A DNA stretch of 37,640 nt from an uncultured virus (IMG/VR IMGVR_UViG_3300021247_000307) (IMGVR_UViG_3300021247_000307); one strand, 5' to 3'; positions 2,358 to 19,200 are shown, counted from the first letter of the stretch. The notes: a model not told the origin generated them from the letters alone. Numbers and translations: made by a program.

Positions 2358-3170
2358 ATGCTAAACTTGACAGGAAGAACAACTGGAAACAAACTTAACA
2401 TTGAACAACTAAACATGTTCAAGAGTATTACTTATTATGATGATACACATACTTATTATAATAATGATACAGAACTATTTACAAGTGTAACATCAGTAAT
2501 TAAAAAATATCAACATGACTTCAATGAAGAATACTGGGCTAAGTATAAAGTACTTCAGAATCAAGGATTACAAATTAAAACTGATAAGAGCAATAATGTT
2601 CCTAAAGGATTTTACTTACTTGATTCCCAATTAGTACACTATAAAGATTTAAATGTCGATATTAACACAATGGTCGAAAGCTGGAAAGCTGGTTCTGATA
2701 CAAGTAAAACAAAAGGAACGAAGTATCATAAGTATTTGGAGAATGCTTGGAACAACAAGTATGAAACCCACGACAGGATTGAAGTTCTGGATAATATCAT
2801 CAAAGTGCTATCATCCCAATACATACCCATAAAGTTAGAATGGGTAGTAGCAGATTTTGATAGTAGAATTGCTGGACAATTAGATGGATTCTTTTATGAT
2901 ATTAAGAATGAAAAGTATGTTATACTAGATTATAAAACAGATAAAGAAATAAAATATTTTAATAGATTTGAAACTTTTATGCCACCATTAGAATTTTTAA
3001 GTGATTGTAATTACAATAAATATACATTACAACTAAATATGTATAAGCATTGTATAGAAAAATACTTAGATATTACTATTGGTAGTATGATTATAGTATG
3101 GATTAAACCTGATGGATTTGAATTAATTAATATTCCTGAATCTCAGGATTTAGTAAAAATGATATTATGA
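2358..3170 (+). CDS. PD-(D/E)XK nuclease, RecB/Cas4-like exonuclease family
   Basis: Motifs SVTSVI, GTKYHKYLE, LEWVV, AGQLDG, ILDYKT and YTLQLNMY (QxxxY). Confidence 0.88.
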   Translation: MLNLTGRTTGNKLNIEQLNMFKSITYYDDTHTYYNNDTELFTSVTSVIKKYQHDFNEEYWAKYKVLQNQGLQIKTDKSNNVPKGFYLLDSQLVHYKDLNVDINTMVESWKAGSDTSKTKGTKYHKYLENAWNNKYETHDRIEVLDNIIKVLSSQYIPIKLEWVVADFDSRIAGQLDGFFYDIKNEKYVILDYKTDKEIKYFNRFETFMPPLEFLSDCNYNKYTLQLNMYKHCIEKYLDITIGSMIIVWIKPDGFELINIPESQDLVKMIL

Positions 3171-3817
3171 AAATAGCTGAATTATTATCTACTATTCGTG
3201 TAACTATTAAAGAAATAACAGACGACAGTAAATATACTGATAGTTATTTATGGTCATTAATTGTACAAGCTAGAGCTACAGTATTAGGTAATAATATTAA
3301 AGGTAAATCATTTATATCAAGTTGGTCTAGTCATAGATTCTGTATAGAATTAGAATTAGTTAAAGCTGAAGATTGTTCTTGTATTCCTGATAATAGTTGT
3401 AAAGTATTAAGAAGTAAATATAAAATACCTAGACCATTAATAGGTAGATATAGAGATGCTATGCAAGTTAAGTTATTAGATGGAAGATTATTAGGAATGA
3501 TAGAACAATATCAACTAAAATCAGATTCACTAGACCCAATAAAAGGAGAAGCATTAAGATACTCAATCATTAATCAATACTTATACTTATGGAGAAGTAA
3601 AACTTTAAAGTGTATTTATGTTGATGGTATATGGGAGAATATATTAGATTGGCAAGATATACAATCACAAGAAGATTGTAATGATATTTATGAAATAGAA
3701 AGTGGTATTGGACAAAATGAAGTTACTGGAATAATGCAGATAATGGCTACACTATTACAATTACCACTATCAAGAAAAGATGATGACAGCGATGACAGAA
3801 ACCCAGAAATACGATAA
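3167..3817 (+). CDS. Probable tail ring / tail-tube protein (crAss-like)
   Basis: 216 aa, ATGA overlap with the upstream gene. N-terminal helices (DDSKYTDSYLWSLIVQARATVL) and CSC...CKVLRSKYKIPRP resemble crAss-like ring proteins as I recall them. Position upstream of the IHF-like and muzzle genes fits. Confidence 0.6.
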   Translation: MKIAELLSTIRVTIKEITDDSKYTDSYLWSLIVQARATVLGNNIKGKSFISSWSSHRFCIELELVKAEDCSCIPDNSCKVLRSKYKIPRPLIGRYRDAMQVKLLDGRLLGMIEQYQLKSDSLDPIKGEALRYSIINQYLYLWRSKTLKCIYVDGIWENILDWQDIQSQEDCNDIYEIESGIGQNEVTGIMQIMATLLQLPLSRKDDDSDDRNPEIR

Positions 3818-4364
3818 GATTTATACAGATAGTAATGAGAAAATGACACTTCTACATTTTTATAAGGAATATCCTTATAAGAAAAGAAAGTGTGCTACAT
3901 GTTTACCTTATGTTAGTATTGAGGATGATAGCAAACATGATTATTCATTAACTTATTCTGAATGGAAGAAAATAATTTTATCATACTTCAAACATATTTT
4001 ATTATATTTGCTAAATGGTTATACATATTACTTTCATTCAGGTATGGGAGAAATAAGAATACTAAGAAAAAAGATAATAAAAAAGAAAGTTGATATAGGT
4101 AGAACTATATTACACTTTATGAAAAGAAGTAGTAAAACTAGAGATGAAGCTATTGAAGAACTAAAGGGTACAAAAGAACGTTTATATTATTTTAATCCTG
4201 AATTAAGTGGTTATAAATGGAGAGTTGTATGGTTTAGAAAAGGATACAATGTAAAGTATTTAAACTTATGGGGATTTATGTTACAAAGACAAAGTGCTTA
4301 TAAGTTTGTTAATGAGTATCTTAAAAAGAATCCAGATACTCTATTTAAATTATCAGAAAAATGA
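3780..4364 (+). CDS. IHF/HU-like DNA-binding protein typical of crAss-like tail modules (true start may be 3792)
   Basis: Basic protein; IILSYFKHILLYLLNGYTYYFHSGMGEIRILRKK fits the HU/IHF helix-strand-G-strand pattern; syntenic position before the tail-stabilisation gene. Confidence 0.6.
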   Translation: MMTAMTETQKYDKIYTDSNEKMTLLHFYKEYPYKKRKCATCLPYVSIEDDSKHDYSLTYSEWKKIILSYFKHILLYLLNGYTYYFHSGMGEIRILRKKIIKKKVDIGRTILHFMKRSSKTRDEAIEELKGTKERLYYFNPELSGYKWRVVWFRKGYNVKYLNLWGFMLQRQSAYKFVNEYLKKNPDTLFKLSEK

Positions 4365-6667
4365 GTGTAGAGTCAAGACCAAATAAGTTAACTAAAGGAT
4401 TAGTATTAGATACTTTCCATACTGATGTTGATAACACAGTAGCTACTTATGCTTTGAACGCACAATTAGAAGACCAAGAAGGTAATCACTTTCACTATGG
4501 CTCTGAAGTTGGTACTACATTTATAAAAGATATTCCTGATAATCATGTTGTTATTGGACATATCAACATGGAAAGAAATGAAACTGTATTATTTACTACA
4601 GATGGAACTAATAGTACTATAGGTGTATTATCAAGAAATGATGATATGTCTTATCATTATGAAATAAAAGTAGATGATAGTAAACAAACTAAAAAGTTAG
4701 GATTTAAAAAAGAAGGATACGTTAGAGGTGTTTATAGATTATTAAATGGTTGTGATAAAGTAATATATTTTGTAGATGGAATAAATAAAGATAGAAGAAT
4801 TAATATTAATCAATTAGATAGTTACAAGTTACCTGATACACAATCAGTAGCTTCAGGAATTATATTTGATGATAGTTTACGAGCTACAATATATGCTCTA
4901 TCATCTGCAACAGGAAATATTCAATTAATAAGATTACTGTCTGCAAGTCCTGAAGCTACTGCTAGTGTATTAGCTAATTTAACATCTGGACAAACATTAA
5001 TTAAACTATTAGAAGTATCAGCAAATGGTATAGGTACTGCATTTGCTAATTTGATGAGAACAGCTAATATAATTTCATTAACAAATGCTACAGGAATAAG
5101 TACAGTAAATGTTGATATTATAAAATTACTACAAACTAATGTTTCTGCAATAGGAAGTGTTAATGCTATACTAGAATCAACACAACAAGGTACTGTTGAA
5201 ATAAATGTAACACTTACAGGTATTGCATCATCAACAGCAATATTATTAAGAACTGCATTATTAGAAGTTAATCTTACAACAGAAGCATCTACAATAGCTA
5301 CTGCTATTCTTACAAAAGTAATTAACGCACAAGTTGAAGCATCATCTAATACAACAGTATCAGCACAAATAACAATACCAATAAGTGCTACAGTTAATGC
5401 AGTAGCAAATACAACAGTTAATGCAATACTTAGTTCTGTTATAAATGCTACAGTAAATGCTACAGCTGATACTTCAGCTACTGCACAATTATCTAAAGTA
5501 ATAAATACATCAGTTAATGCACTAGCTGATAGTTCTTCTGAAGTATTAATTGGAGTAGTTCTTATATCTACAAATATAGCTTCAGCTTCAACAAGTACTG
5601 TTAATTTAATTATAGGTAATTCACTTATATCAAGTGTAACAGCAAAAGGTACTACAACTGTTGAATTAATTATAGCAGAATTGTTATCAAGTACAATGAC
5701 TGCATCAGCTAATACTACTGCTAATTTATTAATTAGTGAATTACTATCATCAACAGTTAATGGTTTAGCAACACCTACATCTAGTCTTACAGTTGCAGAT
5801 GTATTAACTACAAATGTAAACGCATCGGCAACGGTGAGCGCAACTTTGACAAGTGCAGCGGCTACTGTATCAGTTGATTACCTTGTAGTTGCTGGTGGTG
5901 GTGGAAGTGGTAGTTCAAGAGGAGGAGGAGGAGGAGCTGGTGGTTTACTTACAAATGTTGGAGGTACATTATTAACTTTAAATAAAGGCACAACATATAC
6001 AGTAACTGTCGCAAATGGTGGGGTTGGTGCTGCAAGTTTATCTACTCAGGGAGGTGATGGTGGTAACTCAATAATTAGCGGGACAGGTTTAACTACCATA
6101 ACTGCTACAGGCGGTGGTGGTGGAGGTTTTGCTAATTCAAATGGTAGACCAGGAGGAAGTGGCGGTGGTGCGCAGGGAACTGGTTCAACTGGTGGAGCTG
6201 CTTCACCTTCAGGGCAAGGTAATAAAGGTGGTGACGTTGTTTTAGGTTCAGCAACAGCTAATTATATAGCTGGTGGCGGTGGTGGTGCTGGTGCGGTAGG
6301 ATTTAATGGTCAAGAATTAGGCACTCCAACAAATATTGGAAATGGTGGTATTGGATTACAAAATACTATTACAGAGATAACTCCAACTCCTTATTACGCT
6401 GGTGGTGGTGCAGGTGGTAGTGCTTTTTCTTTTGCAACAGTTGGAGGTCTTGGTGGTGGTGGTAATTTTAATACAGCTGGTACTGATAATTTAGGTGGTG
6501 GCGGTGGAGGTGGAAATAGTTTTTCTCTTGGTAAAAATGGTGGTAAAGGCGTTGTAATTATACGTTCAAAAATATTAGCAATATCTACATCACCAACTAT
6601 AACACCAACAACATCAGGTATTTATTATATATATACATTTAATAATGATGGTTCAATAACTTTTTAA
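4361..6667 (+). CDS. Chimeric protein: muzzle/tail-stabilisation N-terminus (aa 1-~159), 20-aa A/S/T repeat shaft, glycine-rich tip domain
   Basis: N-terminus (KGLVLD...YALNA...VIGH...VLF...IYFVDGINKDRRINI) matches the recalled start of crAss-like P22 gp10-type proteins. Composition switches abruptly after ~4837. Gly-rich domain runs from VDYLVVAGGGG to GKGVVIIR...YTFNNDGSITF. Confidence 0.75.
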   Translation: MSVESRPNKLTKGLVLDTFHTDVDNTVATYALNAQLEDQEGNHFHYGSEVGTTFIKDIPDNHVVIGHINMERNETVLFTTDGTNSTIGVLSRNDDMSYHYEIKVDDSKQTKKLGFKKEGYVRGVYRLLNGCDKVIYFVDGINKDRRININQLDSYKLPDTQSVASGIIFDDSLRATIYALSSATGNIQLIRLLSASPEATASVLANLTSGQTLIKLLEVSANGIGTAFANLMRTANIISLTNATGISTVNVDIIKLLQTNVSAIGSVNAILESTQQGTVEINVTLTGIASSTAILLRTALLEVNLTTEASTIATAILTKVINAQVEASSNTTVSAQITIPISATVNAVANTTVNAILSSVINATVNATADTSATAQLSKVINTSVNALADSSSEVLIGVVLISTNIASASTSTVNLIIGNSLISSVTAKGTTTVELIIAELLSSTMTASANTTANLLISELLSSTVNGLATPTSSLTVADVLTTNVNASATVSATLTSAAATVSVDYLVVAGGGGSGSSRGGGGGAGGLLTNVGGTLLTLNKGTTYTVTVANGGVGAASLSTQGGDGGNSIISGTGLTTITATGGGGGGFANSNGRPGGSGGGAQGTGSTGGAASPSGQGNKGGDVVLGSATANYIAGGGGGAGAVGFNGQELGTPTNIGNGGIGLQNTITEITPTPYYAGGGAGGSAFSFATVGGLGGGGNFNTAGTDNLGGGGGGGNSFSLGKNGGKGVVIIRSKILAISTSPTITPTTSGIYYIYTFNNDGSITF
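4900..5860 (+). repeat. Degenerate ~20-aa (60-bp) tandem coding repeat
   Basis: Example units: SSVINATVNATADTSATAQL / IIAELLSSTMTASANTTANL / LISELLSSTVNGLATPTSSL / TVADVLTTNVNASATVSATL. Boundaries approximate. Confidence 0.8.
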
Positions 6668-6669
6668 AC

Positions 6670-7092
6670 ATGGGATATTTTTGTAAACTTGATGAAAATA
6701 ATTTTGTAATTGGAGTACATTCAGTTAGAAATGATGTATTTACAATAAATGATATTGAAAATGAAAATATTGCAGCAGATTTTTTAAATAATTTGCATAA
6801 TATTAATTATGTTTGGAAACAAACCTCTTATAACACGCATGGAGGAATCCATTACCAAGCAGACAACAACACACCTTCCATTGACCAAAGCAAGGCATTC
6901 CGCAAAAACTATGCTGGCATTGGCTATTATTACGATAGCATTCGCGACGCATTCATTCCACCAAAGCCTTTTCCCTCATGGACATTGAACGAGGACACTT
7001 GCTTATGGGATAGCCCTGTACCTTATCCAAGCGATGGCAAGATGTACACATGGAATGAAGATATTTTAAATTGGCAAGAAATAAATTTTTAA
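6670..7092 (+). CDS. Small phage protein usually found next to glycine-rich fibre domains (putative fibre accessory/chaperone)
   Basis: MGYFCKLDENNFV...WKQTSYN...FRKNYAGIGYYYD...DAFIPPKPFPSWTL...W.SPVPYP. I recognise this family from environmental phages; function is inferred. Confidence 0.7.
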   Translation: MGYFCKLDENNFVIGVHSVRNDVFTINDIENENIAADFLNNLHNINYVWKQTSYNTHGGIHYQADNNTPSIDQSKAFRKNYAGIGYYYDSIRDAFIPPKPFPSWTLNEDTCLWDSPVPYPSDGKMYTWNEDILNWQEINF

Positions 7093-7110
7093 CGTTAAAA
7101 ACTATAAATT

Positions 7111-7545
7111 ATGAGTGCTTTTAGTAATTATTTAGAACTTAAAATTGCCCAATGGGTAACAAATGCAGCAGCAATGGGTACTTCACCTGCTGGATTGTAC
7201 ATAGGATTATTTAGTACTGAACCTGGAGAAGCTGGTAATACTGGTACTGAAGTAACTTCTACATTAAGAGGTTCTGCTACAAGACCTACTATTACATTAA
7301 CTGCTGCTACTGATGGAAGTGGTGTTACTACTCTTCAAAACGCTGCTCAATTTGTTTTTACAAATCCAACAGCAGCAGGAGCAGCTACAGTTTCACATTT
7401 TGCTATATTTGATGCAGCTACTGGTAATACTCCTGGTACTACTAATATGTTGTTTAAAGGTGCAATAACTGGTGGAGCAAAAAGTGTAGCATCTGGTGAT
7501 GAAGTTAGATTTAATGCTAATCAGTTTGTTATTACTATTGATTAA
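7111..7545 (+). CDS. Small virion/tail-fibre-associated structural protein
   Basis: MSAFSNYLE...LYIGLFSTEPGEAG...HFAIFDAATG...MLFKG...KSVASGDEVRF pattern of a widespread phage structural family. Confidence 0.7.
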   Translation: MSAFSNYLELKIAQWVTNAAAMGTSPAGLYIGLFSTEPGEAGNTGTEVTSTLRGSATRPTITLTAATDGSGVTTLQNAAQFVFTNPTAAGAATVSHFAIFDAATGNTPGTTNMLFKGAITGGAKSVASGDEVRFNANQFVITID

Positions 7546-7550
7546 TTAAT

Positions 7551-7578
7551 GGGAGAGTAAACAATACTCTCCCTTTAT
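7551..7578 (+). terminator. Putative intrinsic terminator / RNA hairpin
   Basis: Perfect 9-bp stem GGGAGAGTA (7551-7559), loop AACAA, TACTCTCCC (7565-7573), then TTTAT. It lies in the 45-nt gap, the longest between genes in the window. The U-tract is short. Confidence 0.65.
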
Positions 7579-7590
7579 CAAAATTTAATT

Positions 7591-10500
7591 ATGAGTTGGA
7601 ACATAGATGAATTCGATTTGCAACGACAAATATATGTCAACGCACCTAATGCTTCTGTAGTAAATACAGGAGCTTTACCTGTTGGTAGTTATTCTGTTGT
7701 AATTAGAATCTATGATGAAAACCTTCAACTTATAACTCAATCAGATATTAGTCAACAAGTAGTATTAACTGGTAAACAGTTAGTAAGAAAAGAAGCTGTA
7801 ACTATATTACTTCCAGGACCTAATACTCCAAGATTTGATACACCATTATTAAATACTGATTCATCAACTGGAGCATTAAATGGTGAGATATTTGAAGAAA
7901 TAGATGGTGGTATTATATCATCAAAGAAAGGAATTAAAGTAACAGCAACTTCATTACCACAAGATTATCCTTATGCTAAAATAGTTATTATTGCTGCTAA
8001 TGTTAGTAATGATAAATCAGCATTTGAATTACCAGCATTATTATCTACTAATGGAATAGATTATACAGTAACATCATTAGATGGTGCTAGTAGAGTAGAT
8101 TTAGATTCTGTATATGTTGACCCAGTAATATACGATACTTCAGAACATATAGAAATAGTAGATAAAAGATTAATTAGAGCTAATGTTAAAACTAGATACT
8201 ATGACTATAGTGATTTTCAAAGTTATGCTAATAATGTAGAAATTAAATGGGTATCAAAACCTTATGTAGAAAATGAATCATCATTTCAATCTGATGAGAT
8301 ATATGCTTTTGGTATTCAATATCAAATGAGTGATGGAAGTTTTAGTCCTGTGTTTCATATTCCTGGAAGAGCAGCTACACCTAATGATAGAGTTGTAGAT
8401 ACTTTAAGTCCAACTGAAACAGATGCTATTGGTACATTATTACAACGTTGGCAAGTATATTCTACAGCATCAATAGATGGAACTCTAGGATATTATGAAT
8501 CTCAAGAAACATATCCATTAACTAAAAAATGTGATAATCAATATGTATTTGGTGATTTAGCTAATACTCCAGTAAGATACCATAGAATGCCAATGAAGAA
8601 TATGGTTGGTATGCAGAATGCTATTGGTATTAATGTTAATCCTAAAGAACTTCCAACTAACACTATAGGTTGGAGAGTAATGGTTGTTGAACGAGATAGT
8701 ATTAATAGAACTGTAAATGATTCAGGAATTATTACTGGAGTTCAAGAATCACTATATAAAGAACAACGTACTGTAGATTATGCTGTATATGGTATAGCTA
8801 GTCAAGTAGCTGCTAAACCTGATGCACTATTTAAAAGAGGAAACTTTAATCCATCATTAACTAATAGTATTAGTGATACAGTATATGCTACACTATGTGT
8901 TAAAGAATTAGCTGGAGAAGGAATTAGAACTGATTATATTAGTATTCCTTGTGTATTTGATTTAGATGGTGTTGATACAATAACTACATGGTATAATGAA
9001 GCTAAAGATGATATAATATTACCTAACAAACGAGGTAAAACTAAAGGAAACTTATTTCAGAAAGTTAAGAATGAATTTTTAAGAATATATGTATATCCTG
9101 TAATACACGCTTTTACTAGATTGTATAATAGGAATTATAACTATTCTGCAACAAGTAATAATGCTATTTATCAAACAGTTGCAGATACTTATTACGTTAA
9201 TAGTTATAGTAAATATGAAGTTGGTAATGAAGTTTATGCTAATCAATTTCAATCTAATGATGTAAGTTTTGTAAAACTTAAATATCCACTTAATGCTCCA
9301 GATATAATAGCTAATAAATCAGAACAACAATTAGGATATGTATTAAAGAAACAAGCTACTAGACCTTATGCTTCTATTAATAGCTTACAATATAAAGCAT
9401 TAACTCCTACTATATATACTACAAGAGATACTGTTGATTATTATAATGGAGATATTTATATTAGTAGATTTAGACTTACAACATTCTTTTTAGAAGATAG
9501 AGATGAAGCTACATCAACAGGAGTTAGTACAGGACTTTTTATATTAACTGGTACACTTAGTGCTTTAGCATCTGCTGGTAGAGATAGAGAATTATATACA
9601 GTAGAATATACAGAAGTATTATTAGAATCTGATTATAATCTTAACTATAGAGTTCTAGGAACTAAACAGAATGAAGTGTTTAATGGATTTGATTTAATTG
9701 TTTATAAAAACAAATCATACTTTCAAAACTTAGCTAATTACTTCTTTAATAAAATAGGAGAATTAGATGAAGGAGATAGACAATCAACTCAAGATGATAG
9801 ACTTGTTAGATATGGAATAAATGAAACAAAAGAATACTACGCATATAATAAAGATTTAAATAGACTGTTTATGGGTAAAACTTATTTCCCATTACCAGCT
9901 AATTGGAATTACTGTGAAGATTGTTCTGCTAAATTTCCTAATAGAATAATATGGTCTGCTGCATCATTTAGTGAAGATAAATCAGATTTCTTTCAAACAT
10001 ACTTAGCTAATAACTTTACATCAGTAGGTACATCACCTATTACTGCATTAAACTATAGTAGTAATAGATTATTAGTTCGTACTACAAAGAGTATGTTTGT
10101 AATGTCACCAAATCCACAAGAGATTAATACAGATGTAAGTACACTATATATAGGTACTGGAGATTTCTTATCTATACCTCCACAAGAAATAAGAAAAGTA
10201 GATTATGGTTTTGGTGGTGGTAAAGGAACTAAAGACTTTATTGCTACTGAATTTGGATTTGTAACTGTAGATGATAGAACTGGACAAGTATTTTTATTCT
10301 CTGAAGGAATGAAAGAATTAACAGATATTAATTCAGGATGCAATCAATGGTTTAAAGAATATCTACCAACAATAAATGGACATATATTATTAGGTTATGA
10401 CCCACAGTTTAAAAGACTAATGGTATATAAAAGAGATGAGTTTGATAAAACAGAGAATAAATCATTTGTAATTAGTTATAGTTTTAATTATCAAACATGG

Positions 10501-11118
10501 ATTAGTTTTCATAGCTATCATCCTAAGTATTTCTTTAATAGTTTTGATACTTTATTTAGTACAATAAATAGTAAGTTATACTCACACGATAGTAGAATAT
10601 ATAATGAGTTTTATGGTGTATTTAAAGATAGTATATTCGAGTATGTTATTAATGCTCCTACTACAGTTGATTTAGATGCTATTGATTATTATGCTGTAAC
10701 ACTAGACTGGGATAATGATACTAAGTCTTGGAAGAATGTAAACTATCCTACGTTTGATAGGTTTATGGTATATACTAAACAACAATCAACTGGACTACAA
10801 GAATTAATTCCTAAATCAGATTATAATATTGATTGGGATAATAGAAAGAAAACAGTAAGTAATAGAGAAAGAAATTATAGAATTAGTGCAATTAGAGATT
10901 TATCTACAGCTAGTCCTGTAATGAGTAGAGCATGGAATGATATAGAATCTAGTTATCCTATTGATGCTGTTGCAACTAACGTTAACTATAATGCATCACA
11001 ATGGAATCAAATATCCATAAAAGATAAGTATTTTTATGTAAGATTCTTTTTCAATGGAAAAGGAACTCGTATAATACTTGATATAATGAAATCTAAACAA
11101 CAGCTAAGTATATCATAA
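7591..11118 (+). CDS. Tail-stabilisation (muzzle; P22 gp10-like) protein, main C-terminal part
   Basis: GALPVGSYSVVIR, FQSDEIYAFGIQY...SPVFHIPGR, FPNRIIWS, LYIGTGDFLS, LGYDPQFKRLMV, SFVISYS...WISFHSYHP, KDKYFYVRF: recalled motifs of crAss-like muzzle proteins. Beta-rich; lacks the usual N-terminus. Confidence 0.8.
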   Translation: MSWNIDEFDLQRQIYVNAPNASVVNTGALPVGSYSVVIRIYDENLQLITQSDISQQVVLTGKQLVRKEAVTILLPGPNTPRFDTPLLNTDSSTGALNGEIFEEIDGGIISSKKGIKVTATSLPQDYPYAKIVIIAANVSNDKSAFELPALLSTNGIDYTVTSLDGASRVDLDSVYVDPVIYDTSEHIEIVDKRLIRANVKTRYYDYSDFQSYANNVEIKWVSKPYVENESSFQSDEIYAFGIQYQMSDGSFSPVFHIPGRAATPNDRVVDTLSPTETDAIGTLLQRWQVYSTASIDGTLGYYESQETYPLTKKCDNQYVFGDLANTPVRYHRMPMKNMVGMQNAIGINVNPKELPTNTIGWRVMVVERDSINRTVNDSGIITGVQESLYKEQRTVDYAVYGIASQVAAKPDALFKRGNFNPSLTNSISDTVYATLCVKELAGEGIRTDYISIPCVFDLDGVDTITTWYNEAKDDIILPNKRGKTKGNLFQKVKNEFLRIYVYPVIHAFTRLYNRNYNYSATSNNAIYQTVADTYYVNSYSKYEVGNEVYANQFQSNDVSFVKLKYPLNAPDIIANKSEQQLGYVLKKQATRPYASINSLQYKALTPTIYTTRDTVDYYNGDIYISRFRLTTFFLEDRDEATSTGVSTGLFILTGTLSALASAGRDRELYTVEYTEVLLESDYNLNYRVLGTKQNEVFNGFDLIVYKNKSYFQNLANYFFNKIGELDEGDRQSTQDDRLVRYGINETKEYYAYNKDLNRLFMGKTYFPLPANWNYCEDCSAKFPNRIIWSAASFSEDKSDFFQTYLANNFTSVGTSPITALNYSSNRLLVRTTKSMFVMSPNPQEINTDVSTLYIGTGDFLSIPPQEIRKVDYGFGGGKGTKDFIATEFGFVTVDDRTGQVFLFSEGMKELTDINSGCNQWFKEYLPTINGHILLGYDPQFKRLMVYKRDEFDKTENKSFVISYSFNYQTWISFHSYHPKYFFNSFDTLFSTINSKLYSHDSRIYNEFYGVFKDSIFEYVINAPTTVDLDAIDYYAVTLDWDNDTKSWKNVNYPTFDRFMVYTKQQSTGLQELIPKSDYNIDWDNRKKTVSNRERNYRISAIRDLSTASPVMSRAWNDIESSYPIDAVATNVNYNASQWNQISIKDKYFYVRFFFNGKGTRIILDIMKSKQQLSIS

Positions 11119-14111
11119 TGAAGAAGATAGCACAAGGTTTACCTCTAAAGAAATACATAGGTAACAAACATAAAGATGGAGGAATAATGGTTAACGCTTT
11201 AGGCAACAAGACTAAATACGTTAATAAAGCTGTAGCTGAAGTTGAAGGTGGAGAATATAATTTTAGATATAATCCTAATAATCCTAAAGATAACTACATA
11301 CTATCAGAACAATTAGGAATAGCTGGTATAGCTAAACAAGCAGATAGATTTAAAGGTAATAATAGAATAGATTATAATACAAGAACTAATCTACTTAACA
11401 AATCAATGAAGTTAAATGAGATGTTAAGAGTTCAACAAGAACAACAACAACCTATGCAAATGGCATTAGGTGGAGGATTAAATAATAATCCTTTTGATAA
11501 ACAACCACCAAAACAAAAAGATTCTGACTTTAGAAAAACTTATCAAAGCACTCCAATGAATGTTGCTAAGATGTTTGACCCTACAGGAATTAGTTCTTAT
11601 CCTGATGTAGCATATTCTATTGATGATTATAATAAAGGAAAAGGAAGTAAATCAGATATAGCTTTAAATGTATTAGGAGCATTACCTATTATTGGTAAAG
11701 CTAAAGGATTAATTACATTAGCTAAAGGAACAAGTAAAACTAAAAAAGGATTAAATACTATAACTAAACTTGGAGATTTAGCTGGAGATATTGAAAGATT
11801 TCCATTACAAACTGCAAAAGATTTAACTAATAATGCTACAAAACCTATAGCTAAATTGGTTAATAAATCAGCTACTAATCTTTTAAATTTTAATGATGTG
11901 ATAAGAAATAAAATAGTTCCACCACTTAATCCTAATCAATTTTCTACAAAATCAGCAACTAAATCAGATATGATTAATGCTGGAACAAGTGTTGTTAATA
12001 TAGGTAATTTAGGTTCTGATATAAATAGTATTTCAAAGAAACAATTTGGTGGAAAGTTAAAGAAATATAAAGATGGAGGATTTAATGATAGTGGACCTAT
12101 AGATGATAACATACAAAATTATTATAAAAATACTACAACTCGTGATGTTGTATCAACTCCAGGAAATGAGTTAACTAATGTTCCTATGCAACCAGTTGCA
12201 CCATTAGTAAGACCAAAATTAGATGTAAGTAAAGAAATGCAACAAGCACAAGTTGCTGGAGATAATCATGTTAAACAAAAGAAGAATAATTTTAAAGGAG
12301 CATTATCAGCAGTAAGTGGTGTTGCAAGTGCATTTGGTCCTATTGGACAAGGAGTAGGTGCTGCTATACAACTAGCTCCTTATGCTATTGATTTAGGAAA
12401 AGCTATGTTTGATAAAACATCAGTTCAAGATTTACAAACTCAAGGAAGTGCTATGAGATTACCAAATACAACTTATGCTAAACATGGTGGTAAACTAAAT
12501 GTTAAACCGTTACCTAAATTTCAAGATGGTGGAAAATCTAAAGAAATAAATCCATTTGATAAAGTTACACCATCAACTAAAGTTACAGGAACTATGTATC
12601 CTCTTAATAGAGTAGATGATATGAATAATGCATTTAATAGAAGAAATCCTAGTACAATAAGAGGATTAATTAATTCTGAACAAATCAACTTACAAGAACT
12701 TATAACTAATCCATTTAATATAACAGCAGACCCTTATAATATAAATCCTGAAGATAAAAAAGAAAAAAGAAAAATAACATCATCATTAGATGTACTTAAT
12801 CCTAAATCTGATATTAATAGAGCAAGAAGTTTCTATCAAACTCCATCTTATATAGGAGGTAATAAATATGAATATCCTTTTAATCCAGTAACTACAACTG
12901 ATAATAAAGATAATGCTGAAAAGAATAAAGGTAATACTGGAAGTGGTAAAGGAAATACTGGAAGTAAATCTACACCTACAACAAATACTACATCTACAAC
13001 TACATCAACTAATATGTTACCATCAAGAGGATTAATGTTACCAGGTTCTAGTAGTATAGTACAAGCAGCAAAAGCTAGATTTGATAAAGATAATCTTGAA
13101 AGAGAAAAAGAATACGATGCTTTAGTAGGTAATGCTCTTAGTAAATTTAATACAAAAGGAATAACAACACCTACTACAACAGAAACTACAGAAGTTCCTC
13201 AATCTGAATCAAGTAGATTATTTAAAGCTGGACAGAATAAACAAAAGTTATCAGAAGCATTAATGTATGGAATGGCAGCATTACCATCTGAACAAATAAA
13301 AACTATAACTCCTGATTATGGTAGAGGTGATGATGCTATGAGTAGAATGGGATTATCTACTGAACCAATTAGACAAGAAATGATGCAAGGTGCTAATAAA
13401 GCATTAGAGTTAACTCGTAGTCAAGTTGGTACTGCTGGACAATTACAATCAAGAGGTCAAAGTATTATGAGTAATGTTGGAAGTCAACTAGCACAATCTC
13501 AAATGCAACAACAACAATATCTTAATCAATTAAGAGGTGCATTAGCACAAAGAGAAGATACTAAAGCTAATGTATTAGCTCAAAGTGAATTAACTGCAAG
13601 AGAAGCTAAATCTGCTGAAAGAGCTGCTAAACTAGACCAATTAAATAATGCTATATCTCAAACATCAGCTATAGGTGCTGGAACTATGGAGCAAGCATCT
13701 AAAATGAGTACTATAGAAAATGAGAATGAAAGATTTAATAAACAACAAGAAAGATTATTAGATATATTTAATAAGTCTGGTAATTTTAAAGTAAGTTTTG
13801 ATAAAGATGGAAAAATAACATACGATTATGTTGGTAACACTCCTGCTCAATCAAATATTAAAGCAGTAGATTTATCTAAACAACTAGTTGCAAATAATGC
13901 TGCAAATAATGGAACTGGTACAAATCCAGTTTCCAATGTTGTAGTTCCAGCTGCTACAACAACAGGAAATACATATACTATAAAGAAAAATGATTCATTA
14001 TATCGTATTGCTGCAAATAATAAAATGACACTAAATGAATTATTAAAACTTAATCCTGGAATGAAAACTACATCAGTAATACAACCAGGACAAACTATAA
14101 AAATAAAATAA
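11118..14111 (+). CDS. Virion cargo/ejection protein with repeated xxGG motifs and C-terminal LysM
   Basis: GNKHKDGG...AEVEGGE N-terminal motif; repeated (K/M)xxxGG motifs; amphipathic Gly/Ala helices; Gln-rich coiled coil; LysM TYTIKKNDSLYRIA...LLKLNP...IQPGQTIKI at 13971-14108. TAATG coupling at both ends. Confidence 0.7.
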   Translation: MKKIAQGLPLKKYIGNKHKDGGIMVNALGNKTKYVNKAVAEVEGGEYNFRYNPNNPKDNYILSEQLGIAGIAKQADRFKGNNRIDYNTRTNLLNKSMKLNEMLRVQQEQQQPMQMALGGGLNNNPFDKQPPKQKDSDFRKTYQSTPMNVAKMFDPTGISSYPDVAYSIDDYNKGKGSKSDIALNVLGALPIIGKAKGLITLAKGTSKTKKGLNTITKLGDLAGDIERFPLQTAKDLTNNATKPIAKLVNKSATNLLNFNDVIRNKIVPPLNPNQFSTKSATKSDMINAGTSVVNIGNLGSDINSISKKQFGGKLKKYKDGGFNDSGPIDDNIQNYYKNTTTRDVVSTPGNELTNVPMQPVAPLVRPKLDVSKEMQQAQVAGDNHVKQKKNNFKGALSAVSGVASAFGPIGQGVGAAIQLAPYAIDLGKAMFDKTSVQDLQTQGSAMRLPNTTYAKHGGKLNVKPLPKFQDGGKSKEINPFDKVTPSTKVTGTMYPLNRVDDMNNAFNRRNPSTIRGLINSEQINLQELITNPFNITADPYNINPEDKKEKRKITSSLDVLNPKSDINRARSFYQTPSYIGGNKYEYPFNPVTTTDNKDNAEKNKGNTGSGKGNTGSKSTPTTNTTSTTTSTNMLPSRGLMLPGSSSIVQAAKARFDKDNLEREKEYDALVGNALSKFNTKGITTPTTTETTEVPQSESSRLFKAGQNKQKLSEALMYGMAALPSEQIKTITPDYGRGDDAMSRMGLSTEPIRQEMMQGANKALELTRSQVGTAGQLQSRGQSIMSNVGSQLAQSQMQQQQYLNQLRGALAQREDTKANVLAQSELTAREAKSAERAAKLDQLNNAISQTSAIGAGTMEQASKMSTIENENERFNKQQERLLDIFNKSGNFKVSFDKDGKITYDYVGNTPAQSNIKAVDLSKQLVANNAANNGTGTNPVSNVVVPAATTTGNTYTIKKNDSLYRIAANNKMTLNELLKLNPGMKTTSVIQPGQTIKIK

Positions 14112-16213
14112 TGTCTAGTAGATATCAAAAAGTATTACCACAATTAACACCAAGTACAAGTGTATTAGATACACGAAGTACTACTCCAGATGTAACTCCA
14201 GCATTACAATTTGCACAACAGTTACAGACTAACTTGGATGAATTAAGTGTTATTAAAACACCTAATCATTTAGCTGGTGATGCTGAATTTGTTAAACGTG
14301 GATACTTAGACCCAATTAATGAAGCTAAGAATAAAGCTATAGAATCATTTAAGAATAATAATATTGCTGAAGGAGTTCAAGGTCTTAGAGATATAAAATC
14401 ATTCATGTTACAATCTCAACAACAAGGTGGTATATATTCACAGATAGAAAATAATTATAATAAAGCTGCTGAATATACTAAGCAATTAGAAGAAGGATAT
14501 ACTAAAGGTACTTATCAAGATTGGCAAGTTAATAACTATAAAGGATTAATAAGTAAAAGTAAGAGTTTTAATGATAAAGGAGAATATGTACCATTTGAAT
14601 TATCTAATCCAGCACAAGCTCTTGACTTACCTGAATACTTTAATAAATTAGCTAAAGATTGGGGTAAAACAGCTTTTTCTACTTATAGAAAAACTAGTGA
14701 TGGATTATTCTACGATATGAGTTCTGGAACTAGAGTTACTAAAGAAGAAGTTAAAGCAGGATTATTACAATTTATGGCTAGTGATATGAAAGCTCAATCA
14801 TATTATAAAGAATTAGCTAGTGTATTTGGTGAAGCAGCAGCTGATTCTATGTTTAATAATGCTATGAATGCTGCTGCTGATAAAGAAGAATTTAGTCAAA
14901 TAACTCCACACTACGTAAGAAATCCATTAATAGAAGGAGCTGGTTCAGGTGGAAGTAGAACTAAAATTGATAAAAATGGTGTACCTATATTAGAAGGATT
15001 ACTTGGTAAACAAATAACTTTTAAAGGAAGTGGTGTTGATATGGATGAAATACCTTCTCAATTATTTTTACATAATGGTGATTTAATTACTAGAACATCA
15101 TCAGGTAGATATAGGTCTTTAATTAATAAAGTAAATGTTAAAGTTCAAACACAAGGTTCTAATGTTGCTCCAGGTTCAGGAATAGTATTAAATGAAGAAA
15201 GATTTAAAGAATATCCAGCAAGTAGTAATTATACAGCAGTTACTTTAGACCAAATACTAACTAATGATAAATATAAAAGTACAAAAGAAAATTTACAAAA
15301 ACAAGCACCAGGATTGTTAGAAACTGCAAGAAGATTTCCAGTAGAAGAATATAGAAAAACATTAGCTAAAGATGCTATATATAATCCTAATGATTATAAT
15401 CAATTCTTATTAAAAAAATATGAACAATTAAATGAAGAAAAGACAGCATATGTTAATATGATGAGACCATCTATTAAAGATGGAAAACTTTTAGTTTCAA
15501 GACCTAATGGTGAAAAATTAAATATGAGTGATTTTATTAAATACGAATTACCATCTTTAATAAGTGCTCACGGAAATGAAATTATAAAACTTGTAAATGG
15601 TAAGTCAGATGAAATAAATAATAATGAAGTTTCAGAATTAAAACAATATATGGATGGTAAACCCGATAATGTTAAAGTATTAGGAACATTTCAAAGTGAA
15701 GGATTTAATCCTTATGGTGGAAGATATTTAATAGAAGCTAATGGTATACAATATGTTATTCCAGGAGATACAGAAGCTATAAGACAAATGTCAAATTTTA
15801 CTAATATTGCATTATCTAATATATTTAAGAATAATGGTGCATCTAGTAAATTAGGAAATACTGTAGGTGTAGACTATACTGATTCAGAATTTTTATATAC
15901 AAATATATTCTTAAAAGGTAATCCTGATATTAGTAATGTTCCTCCTATTGGTGGACAATTTATAGTATCAATGGATGATAAGTATGATAAAAATAACAAA
16001 CTAAAAAAGTTTGATTTTGATAATTATAATCCTGAAAATAGTGATATTAAATTAATGTATAAAGTAAATGGTAAAAATTATCCAATAGACCAAACTATAT
16101 TTAATGCAACACAATTAGCTAATCTTGGAAGACATAATGACCATTACTTAGGTAATCAAGAAAATCAGCAAATATATTTTAACTATCTTCAACAACTAAG
16201 TCAACAACAATAA
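14111..16213 (+). CDS. Probable second cargo/ejection protein (700 aa)
   Basis: Helical N-terminal half; translationally coupled between the first cargo gene and the RNAP gene as in crAss-like phages. No enzymatic motif recognised. Confidence 0.55.
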   Translation: MSSRYQKVLPQLTPSTSVLDTRSTTPDVTPALQFAQQLQTNLDELSVIKTPNHLAGDAEFVKRGYLDPINEAKNKAIESFKNNNIAEGVQGLRDIKSFMLQSQQQGGIYSQIENNYNKAAEYTKQLEEGYTKGTYQDWQVNNYKGLISKSKSFNDKGEYVPFELSNPAQALDLPEYFNKLAKDWGKTAFSTYRKTSDGLFYDMSSGTRVTKEEVKAGLLQFMASDMKAQSYYKELASVFGEAAADSMFNNAMNAAADKEEFSQITPHYVRNPLIEGAGSGGSRTKIDKNGVPILEGLLGKQITFKGSGVDMDEIPSQLFLHNGDLITRTSSGRYRSLINKVNVKVQTQGSNVAPGSGIVLNEERFKEYPASSNYTAVTLDQILTNDKYKSTKENLQKQAPGLLETARRFPVEEYRKTLAKDAIYNPNDYNQFLLKKYEQLNEEKTAYVNMMRPSIKDGKLLVSRPNGEKLNMSDFIKYELPSLISAHGNEIIKLVNGKSDEINNNEVSELKQYMDGKPDNVKVLGTFQSEGFNPYGGRYLIEANGIQYVIPGDTEAIRQMSNFTNIALSNIFKNNGASSKLGNTVGVDYTDSEFLYTNIFLKGNPDISNVPPIGGQFIVSMDDKYDKNNKLKKFDFDNYNPENSDIKLMYKVNGKNYPIDQTIFNATQLANLGRHNDHYLGNQENQQIYFNYLQQLSQQQ

Positions 16214-16215
16214 CA

Positions 16216-19200
16216 ATGGCAGCACCTTCAGTAATAGAAAACGATAAAGGAACTCCTACATATATTAGTCCTACAGCAAAAGATAATTTTCAATTACCTT
16301 CTACTGTTAAACGTATTCCTGTTAATATAGGAACTAGTATTGAACCAAGTATGCCATTAAGTTCTGAATACTTAGAAGGTTATGCTTTTAATAGATTAGG
16401 ATTAAATCCTAAAACTCCTGAACAATATCAATATCAAGCACAATCTTCTTGGGATGCTTTTAAGAATGGATTAACTCAATTTGGTGCTGAAGCTATTCTT
16501 GGTACAGTAAAATCTGCTGCTACATTATTAGATTTACCGCAATATGTAAATATTGCAATGAATAAAGAAAAAGAATTTAATACAGTATTTGGTAGTTATA
16601 TAGATGAGTTAGCTGAAGGAGTTAGAGAAAGAAATCCTGTATTTGGTACTGAAGAAGTTGAGTTAGCTAATCCTAAATTCTGGGCATCATTACTTCCTGA
16701 TTTAGGAACTACTGTATCATTATTTGTTCCTACTGGAGCTGCTGTAAAAGGATTATCATTAATTACTAAAGGTATAATAGGTGCTAATAAAGCTGGAGGT
16801 TTAGCTGGTAAAGTAGCTAACCACATGTTAAAGAATAGAGAAACTTACAAAGGAGTTGGTGCTGCAATGATTTCAAGAACTATGGAATCAAGTCTTGAAG
16901 CTGAAGGAACACTAAAAGAATCTTATGAGAAATATCTATCTGAAGGATATGGTGATGAACAAGCTAAACAAATGGCTGGTGAAGATGCTAGAAATACTTA
17001 TGTAGCTAACTTACCATTAGTATTACTAGATGCTGTACAATATACTTCATTGTATAAAGGAATGTTTAATCCATTAAGAGGTGCTAGAGCAGCAGAAAGA
17101 GCATTAGCAAATACTACAAGTAATGCTATACTTAAAGCTGCAAGAGGTGTGTATAAAGTTGGTAAAGCATTATCTGGACCAGCAATGGAAGCTGGAGAAG
17201 AACTATTACAGTTTGGTATTCAGAAAGAAGCTAGTAAAACAGATTCATCTGTTAATACTTTATTAAATGCTATATCTAATCTTCCTAATTATGTATCAGA
17301 CCCAGAAGCACAGAAAGCTATGATTAGTGGTGCATTTGGTGGTGGTGTATTTGAAGGATTAAGTTATGCACAACGTAAACTATTTAAACAAGATGCTGAA
17401 ATAGATAATGATTTAGAAGCTGGTAGAGTTGCTGGAGCGCATTATAAATCTATGAAAACATTCATGGATATTATAGATGAAGATAGATTAAAAGAAGAAA
17501 AGTTAATAAATGAAGGTAAATTAAATCAATATATACCTAAAGCTGATAGTTTTTTAGAAGCTGCTAAACTTGATACTGATTCTTTTACTCCAGAAGATAT
17601 TGATAATTTAGTTAAATTAAAAGATGATTATTATACTAAATTAAAAGATTATACTAACAAAGGATTTAGTGGTGATATGCTCAACAAAATAGTTGAGGAA
17701 GATATGAAAGCTACTATATTTAGTAATTTAGAAGAAAAGTTAAAAGTTACTAAACCAAGTTCACCACAACTTACAGATAAAGAATTAAGACTTAAAGCAT
17801 TAAATTTACTAGAAGAAATGGAATCTGGTAATACTAATTTAATGAAGTCTAGTAAATTAAAATCTGCTGAAATAATTAAAGAAGTTAGAAAAGAAAAAGC
17901 ATTATTATTAGCAGAAATGCAAGCAGATTCTACTTTCGACCCAGTAAAATTAAATCGTAAAATTAAACCTGATTCTAAATATAGAGAAGCATTAACTGTA
18001 CAATCTAATATTGAAACTGCTAAAATACTAGCTAATATTGCTAATAATAAATTAGAAGAATATACTAATCCTGATAAACTTATTGATGATATCGAGATTG
18101 ATAAGATTATAGATAACTATGAAAATTTAGTTGACTATAAAGATAAGTTTACAAACTTTGATGACTATTTAGATTATTTAGATAAACTAAGTACTGAAGG
18201 TGATGAAGATTTAAATCTTGTAATTAATACTATTTATGATGATTTAATAGAAGATGCTCTAGCAAATAAAGAAGAAATAAATCCTAAATTAATAGCTAAA
18301 GTAAAAGATACAGATTTACTTGAATTTAATAAAAATAATTTTGCTGCTGACCCTAATGCTGAATATAATTCTGTAGTATCAACACCAATAAATGCTGAAG
18401 AATCTAATATATATCTTACTGGTAAAAAAGATATTGCATCAGGTTTAGTATTAGAAGATAAAAAAAGTAAAAAGAAAATATTAGTTCTAAGTAAAGATAA
18501 AAAAGGAATAAGAGTATTAAAAGATAATAAAGTTGAAGTAGTAAGTGAAGATTCACTTAATAATACTACAATGCTTGGAACTTATAGAACTGCTGATGTT
18601 AATAATACTAAATATATTGTAACAAATAAGGCTTTAATTAATGTTGCTGATGGTAGTATAAAAACTAATTTCAACAACTTAGCAGATGCTATAGAATTTA
18701 GAAGAGCTACATTAGGTATATTTAGTACATCATCTATTGCTAAAATAGAAGAAGATAGAAAGAATGAATTACAAAATAGTGATTTAAAAATTAGAGATGC
18801 TGAAAAGTTATATCCTAAAGGAGATATTATATTTATTACTACAGATGATAAAGTAACTATACATAAAAAGACATTAGGAATAAAACCATCAGAATTAAAA
18901 GAAGATAGTTTATATTCTTTTAAGTTTGTAAAGAATGGTAAAGAAGTTGATAGAGTATTTAGATATGATATTAAAGAAGGTTTAGTAAAACAAATTAAGA
19001 CTAATGGTACATTAATTGATGACCCTAATTATAAAAGAATAAATGATAGAGAGAATTATATTCAATATCAAGAATTAGATTATGCTGATAAAGCTGAAAG
19101 AGATTTTAAAAACATAAGTCTTATAAATAAAAAGTATGATGCTAAATATGTTGATGAAGTTGCTAATGGTAATATAAGTATTGAAAGTGCTTTAAAGATA

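Follow-up and report, generated by a model that had tools for sequence, protein, structure and literature searches.

A stretch of DNA of 37,640 nucleotides from an uncultured virus (IMG/VR IMGVR_UViG_3300021247_000307), which is analysed here over its full length and referred to as the window, contains a tail muzzle gene that is cut in two by a fibre cassette. The first part of this gene heads the 768-aa protein P0001, which is encoded by the open reading frame (ORF) beginning at position 4361 and continues into a repeat shaft and a Gly-rich end, and the remaining part is the separate gene of the 1175-aa muzzle body P0002, which begins at position 7591. The split is confirmed as an observation by profile matches, by DNA alignment with uncut relatives and by independent contigs. 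The source of the window is an uncultured freshwater crAss-like phage that is distantly related to Flavobacterium Fipvunavirus, and the ORFs of the window form a tightly packed run, all on one strand. Its host is probably a freshwater Bacteroidota, to judge by its relatives among Flavobacterium phages and by A/T-rich leaders that lack an SD sequence. To our knowledge, no other tail part of crAss-like phages is as conserved or as poorly understood as the muzzle, and these phages are very difficult to culture and engineer. The initial annotation had interpreted the two ORFs as parts of a muzzle gene that is split by a fibre cassette, and this genetic interpretation is supported. Both ORFs are present as it described them, with D159 encoded by the codon at 4835-4837 and with the second ORF starting MSWNIDEFDLQ...GALPVGSYSVVIRIYDE. 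The coordinates of the features are listed in Table 1.

The two ORFs match neighbouring parts of a single protein family. A profile hidden Markov model made from an alignment of 44 uncut homologues (alignment A4) matches residues 4-165 of P0001 at positions 2-148 and residues 2-1174 of P0002 at positions 153-1364, such that the two matches are adjacent without overlap. Likewise, the first 155 positions of PHROG 15100 match residues 13-156 of P0001, and P0002 matches further along the same family. The Pfam family crAss_MUZ (PF25731) matches residues 593-992 of P0002 at model positions 902-1222 (E 6.6e-15) and residues 8-151 of the N-fragment at model positions 5-147 (E 4.5e-5), the latter with 22.2 bits, which is under the gathering score of 27. 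The rest of P0001 is matched by phrog_2295 at residues 218-749 and by Gly_rich_2 at residues 494-736. The limits of these PHROG and Pfam matches bear out, after residue ~157, the abrupt change of character that had been noticed in this ORF. When the cultured phages are searched by tblastn, the N-fragment and the body match FpV4 at 23966-24337 and 24401-29809 respectively, within one annotated coding sequence (CDS) of 1961 aa, and the two fragments are likewise colinear in a single CDS of Fpv1. Thus, as the initial annotation had expected, both fragments match adjacent and non-overlapping parts of the same full-length muzzle homologues, regardless of whether A4, FpV4 or Fpv1 is used. The window resembles other crassvirus muzzle loci in that family profiles match both the N- and C-terminal parts and the tail module lies beside ring-protein genes, but the muzzle is not encoded as a single polypeptide, because 2765 bp lie between its two ORFs. 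Single-sequence searches of the PDB with P0001, P0002, P0003 and the shaft segment give no useful match, and a profile is needed to reach gp44, the muzzle protein of phicrAss001. IMG/VR scans with P0002, the N-fragment and P0222, a distant homologue of the N-domain, return zero loci.

The ends of the insert are defined to the base by alignment with four uncut loci and by the raw sequence. Homology to the uncut gene ends after TAC AAG TTA (Y155 K156 L157) at position 4831 and restarts at TGG (W3 of P0002) at position 7597. The segment 4832-7596 (2765 bp) therefore stands in place of 12 bp (GAAAATGGTCAA, ENGQ) of the uncut gene. The junctions had been estimated at ~4837 and ~7590 and the insert at ~2.75 kb; the true breakpoints, 4831/4832 and 7596/7597, are 6 nt off at each junction. 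The insert is in frame at its left end (…KL-PDTQSVASG…) and carries a repeat/Gly-rich arm and two small genes, and the downstream part of the muzzle has its own ATG behind an A/T-rich leader, all as had been proposed. The right end of the insert supplies a hairpin at 7551-7573, the leader TTTATCAAAATTTAATT and then ATG AGT, within and just beyond the 45-nt spacer between the P0004 gene and the P0002 ORF. This hairpin is unique in the window, against 0 expected by chance, and has a folding energy of -15.9 kcal/mol (z -3.0). The hairpin and leader are kept in the split loci L003, L008 and L010 and are different in L006. Scans for sigma-70 promoters and terminators give the same counts as shuffled sequences, the 9-nt loop putting the hairpin at 7551-7573 outside the terminator scan. 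Within the insert, GC content climbs from ~0.27 to 0.46 at 6001-6500, which is the Gly-rich part. A 36-nt inverted repeat (4826-4861 and 4945-4980, 83% complementary, 83-nt spacer) is also present and begins exactly at the left junction.

No Rfam family matches positions 4000-8000 at E <= 1, and no direct repeats or target duplication are found at the ends of the insert, so that nothing indicates an intron or a transposon. An intron, an intein and recoding were dropped as explanations because of the former result and because the cassette consists of three ordinary ORFs, and a transposon-like insertion was rejected because of the latter. The simplest origin of the cassette would be illegitimate recombination with a fibre operon.

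Close relatives of the window carry the muzzle gene either split or uncut. The search with P0002 gives 192 proteins at E <= 0.001, including 37 full-length clusters at 82-99% identity. In 27 of the 37 clusters the protein is split (1153-1192 aa) and begins MSWNIDEFDLQRQ without exception, and in the other 10 it is uncut (1310-1339 aa), with the N-domain first, and reads ...INKDRRINLSQLKNYKL-ENGQ-WNIDELDLQRQ... across the junction. The possibility raised in the initial annotation, that close relatives always encode the two fragments separately, is thus refuted, because these 10 clusters encode them as one chain. The N-fragment is 82-87% identical to the N-terminus of the uncut relatives. The four residues at the junction differ in other uncut members (SNTE, LNNE), and the cut site is a variable loop. 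The same two states are found when metagenome contigs of the Joint Genome Institute (JGI) are scanned and their ORFs are mapped by blastp against the window proteins: 12 of the 19 loci are split (L003-L014) and seven are uncut (L015-L021), while the upstream synteny (exonuclease, ring protein 2, 194-aa ORF) is alike in all 19, at 78-99% identity. The entire cassette and the start of the body are seen in the split loci L003, L006, L008 and L010, the fusion gene and cassette genes are seen in L012, and the other seven split loci end within the fusion gene. Two of the uncut loci, L017 and L018, are the same locus present twice, 98,893 bp apart, on one contig of 170,074 bp, which is probably a concatemer or a circular read-through; this spacing suggests a genome of ~98.9 kb. 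Two other uncut loci, L015 (7733-10001) and L016 (1-1777), carry two additional ORFs, of 607 aa (YkuD-like by a weak match) and 151 aa, which separate the 194-aa ORF from the intact muzzle gene and mark another site of insertion, a few bases upstream of the position of the split gene.

More distant homologues, as far as examined, are all single chains. These are P0046-P0060, FpV4, Fpv1, gp44 and all 10 complete IMG/VR loci; four further IMG/VR loci are cut by contig ends, and the 14 together are relatives of P0240. The short matches in the search with the N-domain are mostly colinear truncations that run past profile position 150. Three distant N-domain homologues at 35-47% identity, P0222 (147 aa), P0240 (171 aa) and P0279 (87 aa), end at profile position 147, where the window's muzzle is also cut, and could be independent splits or truncated gene calls.

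An assembly chimera, a frameshift from sequencing or a pseudogene can hardly be credited as the source of the split, even though the window is a metagenome-type record. The same junctions recur in four JGI contigs whose cassettes are complete and in 27 protein clusters drawn from ENA, Logan and JGI, and the divergence among these records (82-99% identity) excludes one shared mis-assembly. The ORFs are intact and under purifying selection. Among the public runs listed, 20 of 24, from 11 studies, contain 35-46% of the words sampled from positions 4500-8000; the runs with these words are freshwater, pond, river, aquatic and wastewater metagenomes. Logan contigs bridge the left junction in all four runs used, which come from four studies, and the right junction is bridged in one Logan run (X7, 7083-7662) and in the four JGI contigs. 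Another Logan contig begins at 7591 behind a different, L006-like leader. Stretches without Logan contig cover, such as 5904-6254 and 6723-6839, were counted as no evidence. Both junctions are thus spanned by independent contigs, which is the check that had been called for.

The position of the cut in the muzzle fold is indicated by the alignment with gp44. When the A4 profile is searched against the PDB, this is the one sequence matched (7QOK/7QOL/8CKB, E 4.5e-56), and the alignment places the window's ...SYKL | WNIDEF... on ...DYNNA | DDFDF... at ~residue 156 of gp44. According to the published description, gp44 consists of a ring-joining domain and a seven-bladed beta-propeller, with the domain IG1 inserted between propeller blades 2 and 3 (Bayfield et al. 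2023, PMC10172136). Because the cut aligns just ahead of IG1, it falls at the boundary between blade 2 and IG1. The N-fragment is the ring-joining region with propeller blades 1-2, and P0002 is IG1 and all that comes after it, namely blade 3 with IG2 and the crass domain, blades 4-7 and the C-terminal domain. An AlphaFold2 (AF2) model of residues 1-165, built from a 70-row alignment, has a mean predicted local distance difference test score (pLDDT) of 73. Its residues 56-150 have a pLDDT of 83-90 and form 4+3 beta-strands, and residues 1-55 are near a pLDDT of 50. Foldseek with this model against the PDB returns only 7qok_A at E <= 0.001 (E 3.8e-4, probability 1.00, 112 columns, 28% identity), and propellers of the WD40, kelch and sialidase kinds follow as weaker matches. 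The platform and the beta-propeller are thus shared out between two polypeptides, as in a split nozzle.

The putative assembly of the N-fragment and the body in trans is strongly implied by the homology to gp44 and by the precedent of the Pseudomonas podophage A1002, whose nozzle is described at the end. The low confidence of residues 1-55 in the model could also be taken to mean that the N-fragment lies outside the muzzle, where it would be a handle, for example on the last ring protein, or a decaying remnant, while the body works alone with an incomplete propeller. This is quite improbable, because the ratio of nonsynonymous to synonymous substitution rates (dN/dS, NG86 method) in the N-domain is 0.24 for split-split pairs (74 pairs), 0.39 for uncut-uncut pairs (14 pairs) and 0.33 for mixed pairs (78 pairs). 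The N-domain in its split form is therefore under purifying selection at least as strong as in the uncut genes. In addition, two propeller blades make up the well-predicted part of the fragment, and such blades have no evident function beyond the propeller. The A1002 structure shows that such complementation exists.

The history of the split differs between the two parts of the gene. In the N-domain tree, which is made from columns 1-145 of 28 split, 11 uncut and three outgroup rows, one state change is enough: the split rows form one clade, which is nested among the uncut rows when the tree is rooted with the outgroup. The support of this clade in the Shimodaira-Hasegawa-like approximate likelihood ratio test (SH-aLRT) is 90, which is under the 95 mark of the tool and to that extent counts against a single origin. 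In the body tree (28 split, 10 uncut and three outgroup rows), the starred branches require at least six state changes. Taken together, the N-domain tree, the body tree, the dN/dS values and the distant homologues show that the split arose once, by insertion, and has persisted beside the uncut allele, and that homologous recombination with uncut genomes, in the conserved flanks, has later re-assorted the module of N-domain plus cassette and the body. The reverse polarity, in which the two-gene form is ancestral and the one-gene forms result from deletions of the cassette that fused the pieces, would agree with the mixing of states in the body tree, as trees are unrooted in principle and losses of the cassette by recombination certainly happen. 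It is nevertheless very improbable, because every more distant homologue examined is a single chain and the outgroup-rooted N-domain tree nests the split rows as one clade, and because an exact in-frame re-fusion that restores the loop of the family would require an uncut template anyway.

The arm that is attached to the N-domain varies greatly among the relatives. The search with residues 1-159 matches 37 proteins at E <= 0.001, out of 116 candidates of 422-1344 aa, and these are 25 fusions (459-1315 aa, with 88-98% identity in the N-domain), 11 uncut genes and one partial match. A representative search (540 matches at E <= 0.001) adds a fusion of 1544 aa, and the loci add fusions of 1588 and 2013 aa. 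At least 25 different distal arms are thus joined to the N-domain. All fusions have the junction and the beginning of the shaft in common, and their Pfam content differs (Laminin_G_3/LamG, Toxin_R_bind_N, ArabFuran-catal-like, Gly_rich_2, DUF7483, SPRY). This result shows that lectin-like, Gly-rich, DUF7483 and SPRY modules replace one another freely in the distal part, and therefore that the locus acts as a plug-in site for host-recognition arms. The Gly-rich distal domain of the window is a candidate receptor-binding tip; its Gly_rich_2 module is present in 1821 environmental proteins (E <= 0.001). No match to arm residues 160-768 is found by tblastn in the cultured phages, and a protein search for a donor of the shaft matches only members of the same N-anchored family.

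The rest of the cassette varies as well. A Gp80-family gene is present in all six cassettes that are readable past the fusion gene, and a phrog_7759 gene in five of the six, the one without it being L003. The 140-aa phrog_7759 protein has no Pfam, PDB or named Atlas match. Extra cassette ORFs are present in L006 (323 aa) and L012 (412 aa, Gly-rich). Outside the cassette, positions 1-585 of the window encode part of a homologue (80% identity) of a 933-aa protein, which in relatives (as at L006 3944-7149) comes after a resident Gp80-family gene of 134 aa that is 33-40% identical to that of the cassette. These phages probably have two bead genes.

The shaft and the Gp80-family protein of the cassette may be the parts of a chain-like fibre, in which beads are carried on a rope. 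The shaft (aa 160-500) has a period of 20 residues in ~17 units, with z scores against shuffles of 11.1 at lag 20 and 8.3 at lag 40; the repeats are invisible to a DNA tandem-repeat finder and are seen at the protein level alone. The 20-aa periodicity is also present in most of the fusions of relatives. P0004 matches the fibre protein of the Ralstonia podophage GP4 (PDB 8JOU chain a) over its full length (residues 1-136, E 1.3e-4), and is in this respect a Gp80-family bead of a chain-like fibre. The shaft segment has no sequence match in the PDB. In four of the six Gp80 loci examined in cultured phages, the strongest or second-strongest periodicity of an adjacent gene is 20 aa, which supports the reading of the window's shaft as a rope for P0004. 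These genes encode the 'tail protein' gp59 of MEP401 (L040 3671-4486; z 10.7, ~10 units of 20 residues, ...LTGTGTL), the 'carbohydrate esterase' of Microcystis phage yong2 (L039 866-3982; z 5.3, with the 20-residue-repeat stretch N-terminal), gp61 of Bcep22 (z 3.1-3.5) and gene 18 of phiM5 (z 3.3), of which the first two are probably unannotated rope proteins. The coexistence of uncut and split alleles at 82-99% identity suggests that beads-on-a-rope fibres spread as three-gene cassettes.

Several results weigh against a rope. Two of the six cultured Gp80 loci, those of Lietuvens and CcrPW, have no adjacent protein with a 20-aa period, and one group of fusions, of ~510 aa (P0134, P0135, P0140-P0143), has no lag-20 signal at the threshold used. 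The Gp80-like proteins of the cassettes are of two types, 75-77% and 36-42% identical to that of the window, and these types do not track the similarity of the shafts; in L010, for instance, the shaft is 64% and the bead 40% identical to those of the window, which is unlike tight co-evolution of rope and bead. The AF2 model of the whole 768-aa protein, with a mean pLDDT of 41.7, is uninformative, and thus allows for a shaft that is a self-folding or oligomeric fibre instead of a rope. A prediction of the complex of shaft residues 320-399 with two copies of the 144-aa protein gives 0.00 in both runs, which were made without controls and are uninformative either way. The chances that the shaft is a rope for P0004 are about even.

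The arm may instead be a conventional self-assembling fibre, with beta-strand repeats and a trimeric or dimeric shaft formed from neighbouring subunits, in which case the split and the two-chain muzzle would still be real and the Gp80-family and phrog_7759 proteins would be separate accessory or assembly proteins. Regular short strands that AF2 predicts through aa 247-480, with low confidence, point to such a fibre, as do the lack of co-variation of the bead type with the shaft, the fusions without a clear 20-aa period, and the resident Gp80-like paralogue, which adjoins a 933-aa protein that is no 20-aa repeat rope. A conventional fibre is nevertheless rather unlikely, though by no means negligible, because the six chains of a hexameric muzzle are a better fit to monomeric ropes, as in A1002, than to trimers, because a Gp80-family gene is present in every readable cassette, and because 20-aa periodic proteins adjoin Gp80-family genes in four of the six cultured-phage loci. 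If the shaft is a rope, the hairpin 3' of the bead gene could, speculatively, raise expression of the bead over that of the muzzle body, because hundreds of beads would be needed per virion against six copies of the body.

These results are probably best explained as follows, and we hold the explanation as a whole, from the split to trans-complementation, the rope with its beads and the plug-in site, to be likely. In an ancestor of the lineage, the 2765-bp cassette took the place of four codons in a variable surface loop of the gene for the muzzle, the gatekeeper of the tail tip. Because the insert is in frame at its left end, muzzle residues 1-157 now head a 768-aa protein with ~17 repeats of 20 residues and a Gly-rich end. 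Because the right end supplies the hairpin, the A/T-rich leader and ATG-AGT, the remaining 1173 muzzle residues are made as a separate chain. The two chains would rebuild the muzzle subunit in the virion, with the propeller complemented in trans as in the A1002 nozzle proteins, and the six subunits would carry one arm each, projecting sideways from the tail tip. With less certainty, the 20-residue repeats may be a rope that is threaded by dimers of the Gp80-family protein, and the distal module may bind the host.

A more far-reaching proposal, which is tentative and judged somewhat more doubtful than the rope itself, is that the loop between blade 2 and IG1 is a natural plug-in socket. The first 157 residues would have become a universal anchor through one ancient insertion in frame, with the propeller complemented in trans, a monomeric rope with ~17 docking sites for Gp80 dimers and an exchangeable tip; the two alleles would be co-maintained by host-range selection in freshwater phages, and the module would be moved as a unit by homologous recombination. 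If so, the locus would be a population-level system for switching tail-tip fibres on and off and for swapping them, as well as an example, resolved to the base, of the way in which nozzles come to be split as in A1002.

Table 1. Features of the split muzzle locus and its upstream flank, in coordinates of the window.
Feature	Coordinates	Strand	Evidence or description
Tail ring protein 2 gene	3167..3817	+	Pfam CrAss_Ring_2, E 4.9e-16; 90-99% identity in all relatives showing the gene
Conserved 194-aa ORF	3780..4364	+	phrog_12177; syntenic in split and uncut relatives, 78-98% identity
Fibre fusion ORF, P0001, 768 aa	4361..6667	+	Muzzle N-fragment, repeat shaft and Gly-rich tip
Muzzle N-fragment, residues 1-157	4361..4831	+	Profile, Pfam and Foldseek matches to muzzle
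Inserted cassette, 2765 bp	4832..7596	+	DNA alignment against four uncut loci and raw sequence
Shaft (candidate rope), ~17 repeats of 20 residues, aa 160-500	4838..5860	+	BLOSUM autocorrelation
Distal Gly-rich domain and C-terminus of fibre protein	5840..6667	+	Pfam Gly_rich_2 (PF21722), aa 494-736, E 4.8e-21
Cassette gene 2, P0003, 140 aa	6670..7092	+	phrog_7759, E 4.9e-37
Cassette gene 3, P0004, 144-aa Gp80-family candidate bead (GP4 fibre I type)	7111..7545	+	Pfam Gp80 (PF23140), E 3.7e-24
Terminator-like hairpin, GGGAGAG-N9-CTCTCCC	7551..7573	+	Pattern count and folding energy; followed by A/T-rich leader and new ATG
Muzzle body gene, P0002, 1175 aa	7591..11118	+	Profile and Pfam crAss_MUZ matches

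The genes around the muzzle are in keeping with a tail module. The ring protein 2 gene marks a crAss-type tail barrel module as the context of the split, a CrAss_Ring_1 gene lies upstream in relatives, and the stop of the 194-aa ORF overlaps the start of the split gene. In L006, an ORF of a holin family (2817-3263; Phage_holin_4_1, E 1.2e-7) lies inside the tail-ring/fibre module, directly after the ring protein 1 gene. Further upstream in the window, the ORF at 591-2354 encodes a 587-aa SbcD-like metallophosphoesterase that is matched by LAGLIDADG_3 at aa 316-373 and by PHROGs of the intein type; its homologue is 278-290 aa in most relatives and 598 aa in L014, and the ORF probably carries an intein or homing-endonuclease insertion. 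Downstream of the muzzle, the two genes at 11118-16213 encode a 997-aa protein with a C-terminal LysM and a 700-aa protein. They are much more divergent among relatives (27-74% identity, 694-788 aa) than the upstream genes, and the variable zone therefore extends past the muzzle. They are followed by giant ORFs at 16216-31221 (5001 aa) and 31452-37628 (2058 aa), which may encode cargo or virion RNA polymerase proteins of the crAss type; FpV4 has a comparable 'structural protein' of 4288 aa.

Among known systems, gp44 of phicrAss001 (PDB 7QOK/7QOL/8CKB; PF25731, PF25729) is homologous over its whole length to the two window ORFs combined, and lies in the same tail-module context beside ring proteins. 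As described (PMC10172136), it is one chain of five domains, whereas in the window the chain is cut at the boundary between blade 2 and IG1, the N-terminal piece is fused to a 610-residue arm, and three additional coding regions lie within the gene. The closest cultured relatives of both fragments, FpV4 and Fpv1 (Fipvunavirus; ALN97142, ANB40272), match them colinearly at 27-33% identity, but their muzzles are encoded by one CDS, of 1961 or 1783 aa, without a cassette. 

The comparison with chain-like fibres is drawn from published descriptions. The GP4 fibre is described as five gp80 dimers on a free rope, and in the collar-whisker complex of Bas63/Sf14 the Bas63 rope is an N-terminal extension of the collar that carries two dimers (PMC12609058). 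These systems resemble the window in that a Gp80-family protein and a periodic partner are encoded nearby. They differ in that the candidate rope of the window is joined to a piece of the muzzle at the tail tip and has a large domain at its distal end, whereas that of GP4 is free and that of Bas63 belongs to the collar, and in that the known rope fibres carry 2-11 dimers, compared with ~17 repeats in the window.

The value of the locus lies in what it shows of the muzzle itself. A defined loop tolerates a natural cut, arms of ~300 to ~1850 residues and many tips, which indicates that an essential tail tip accepts foreign modules and that a core tail protein has been turned into a holder for swappable host-binding fibres. 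Such a permissive site would be of use in engineering host range and in the prediction of receptor-binding proteins from metagenomic crAss-like genomes, where the N-anchored gene would otherwise pass in annotation for a truncated muzzle or a hypothetical protein.

The closest parallel is the split nozzle of A1002, which, according to its published description (PLoS Biol Nov 2026, PMC13730344), is made up of a nozzle-rope protein, gp39, together with a nozzle-base protein, gp42, and carries chain-like fibres of gp40/gp41 dimers. There, gp39 supplies a platform piece, two incomplete propeller blades and a long arm, the rope of which carries 11 dimers along a fibre-dock domain of ~300 Å, and its authors propose an origin by module acquisition. 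The statement in the initial annotation that no example of this route to a new appendage was known is outdated by that paper. The window is similar to A1002, as described, in that a nozzle-type protein is made in two chains, the smaller of which comprises the platform, two blades and an arm, and in that Gp80-like genes adjoin. A1002, however, belongs to another phage group, and is likened to the window by its published description. The anchor is C-terminal in A1002 gp39 but N-terminal in the window, where the rope would be C-terminal, and this reversed topology makes A1002 an analogue and not a homologue, which limits its weight as a precedent. The binding of rope and bead is solved in A1002 and inferred in the window. 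The distal end of the window's arm is a swappable lectin or Gly-rich module, unlike that described for A1002. For A1002, the published account gives no known uncut sibling, whereas the lineage of the window has uncut and split alleles at 82-99% identity and the event is mapped to the base; this pair provides the comparison of before and after that is missing from the structural study of A1002, and shows that a split nozzle can result when one insertion falls in frame at the border of two domains. Those parts of the literature on the phage muzzle protein that were covered do not mention a split crAss-type muzzle, and within that literature the window is the first split-nozzle case found for a crAss-type muzzle. 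This case is marked by a chain topology opposite to that of A1002, base-level breakpoints, a co-circulating uncut allele and a hypervariable tip. The split of the window arose independently of that of A1002, in another phage order, and such independent origins point to a general route by which short-tailed phages add fibres.

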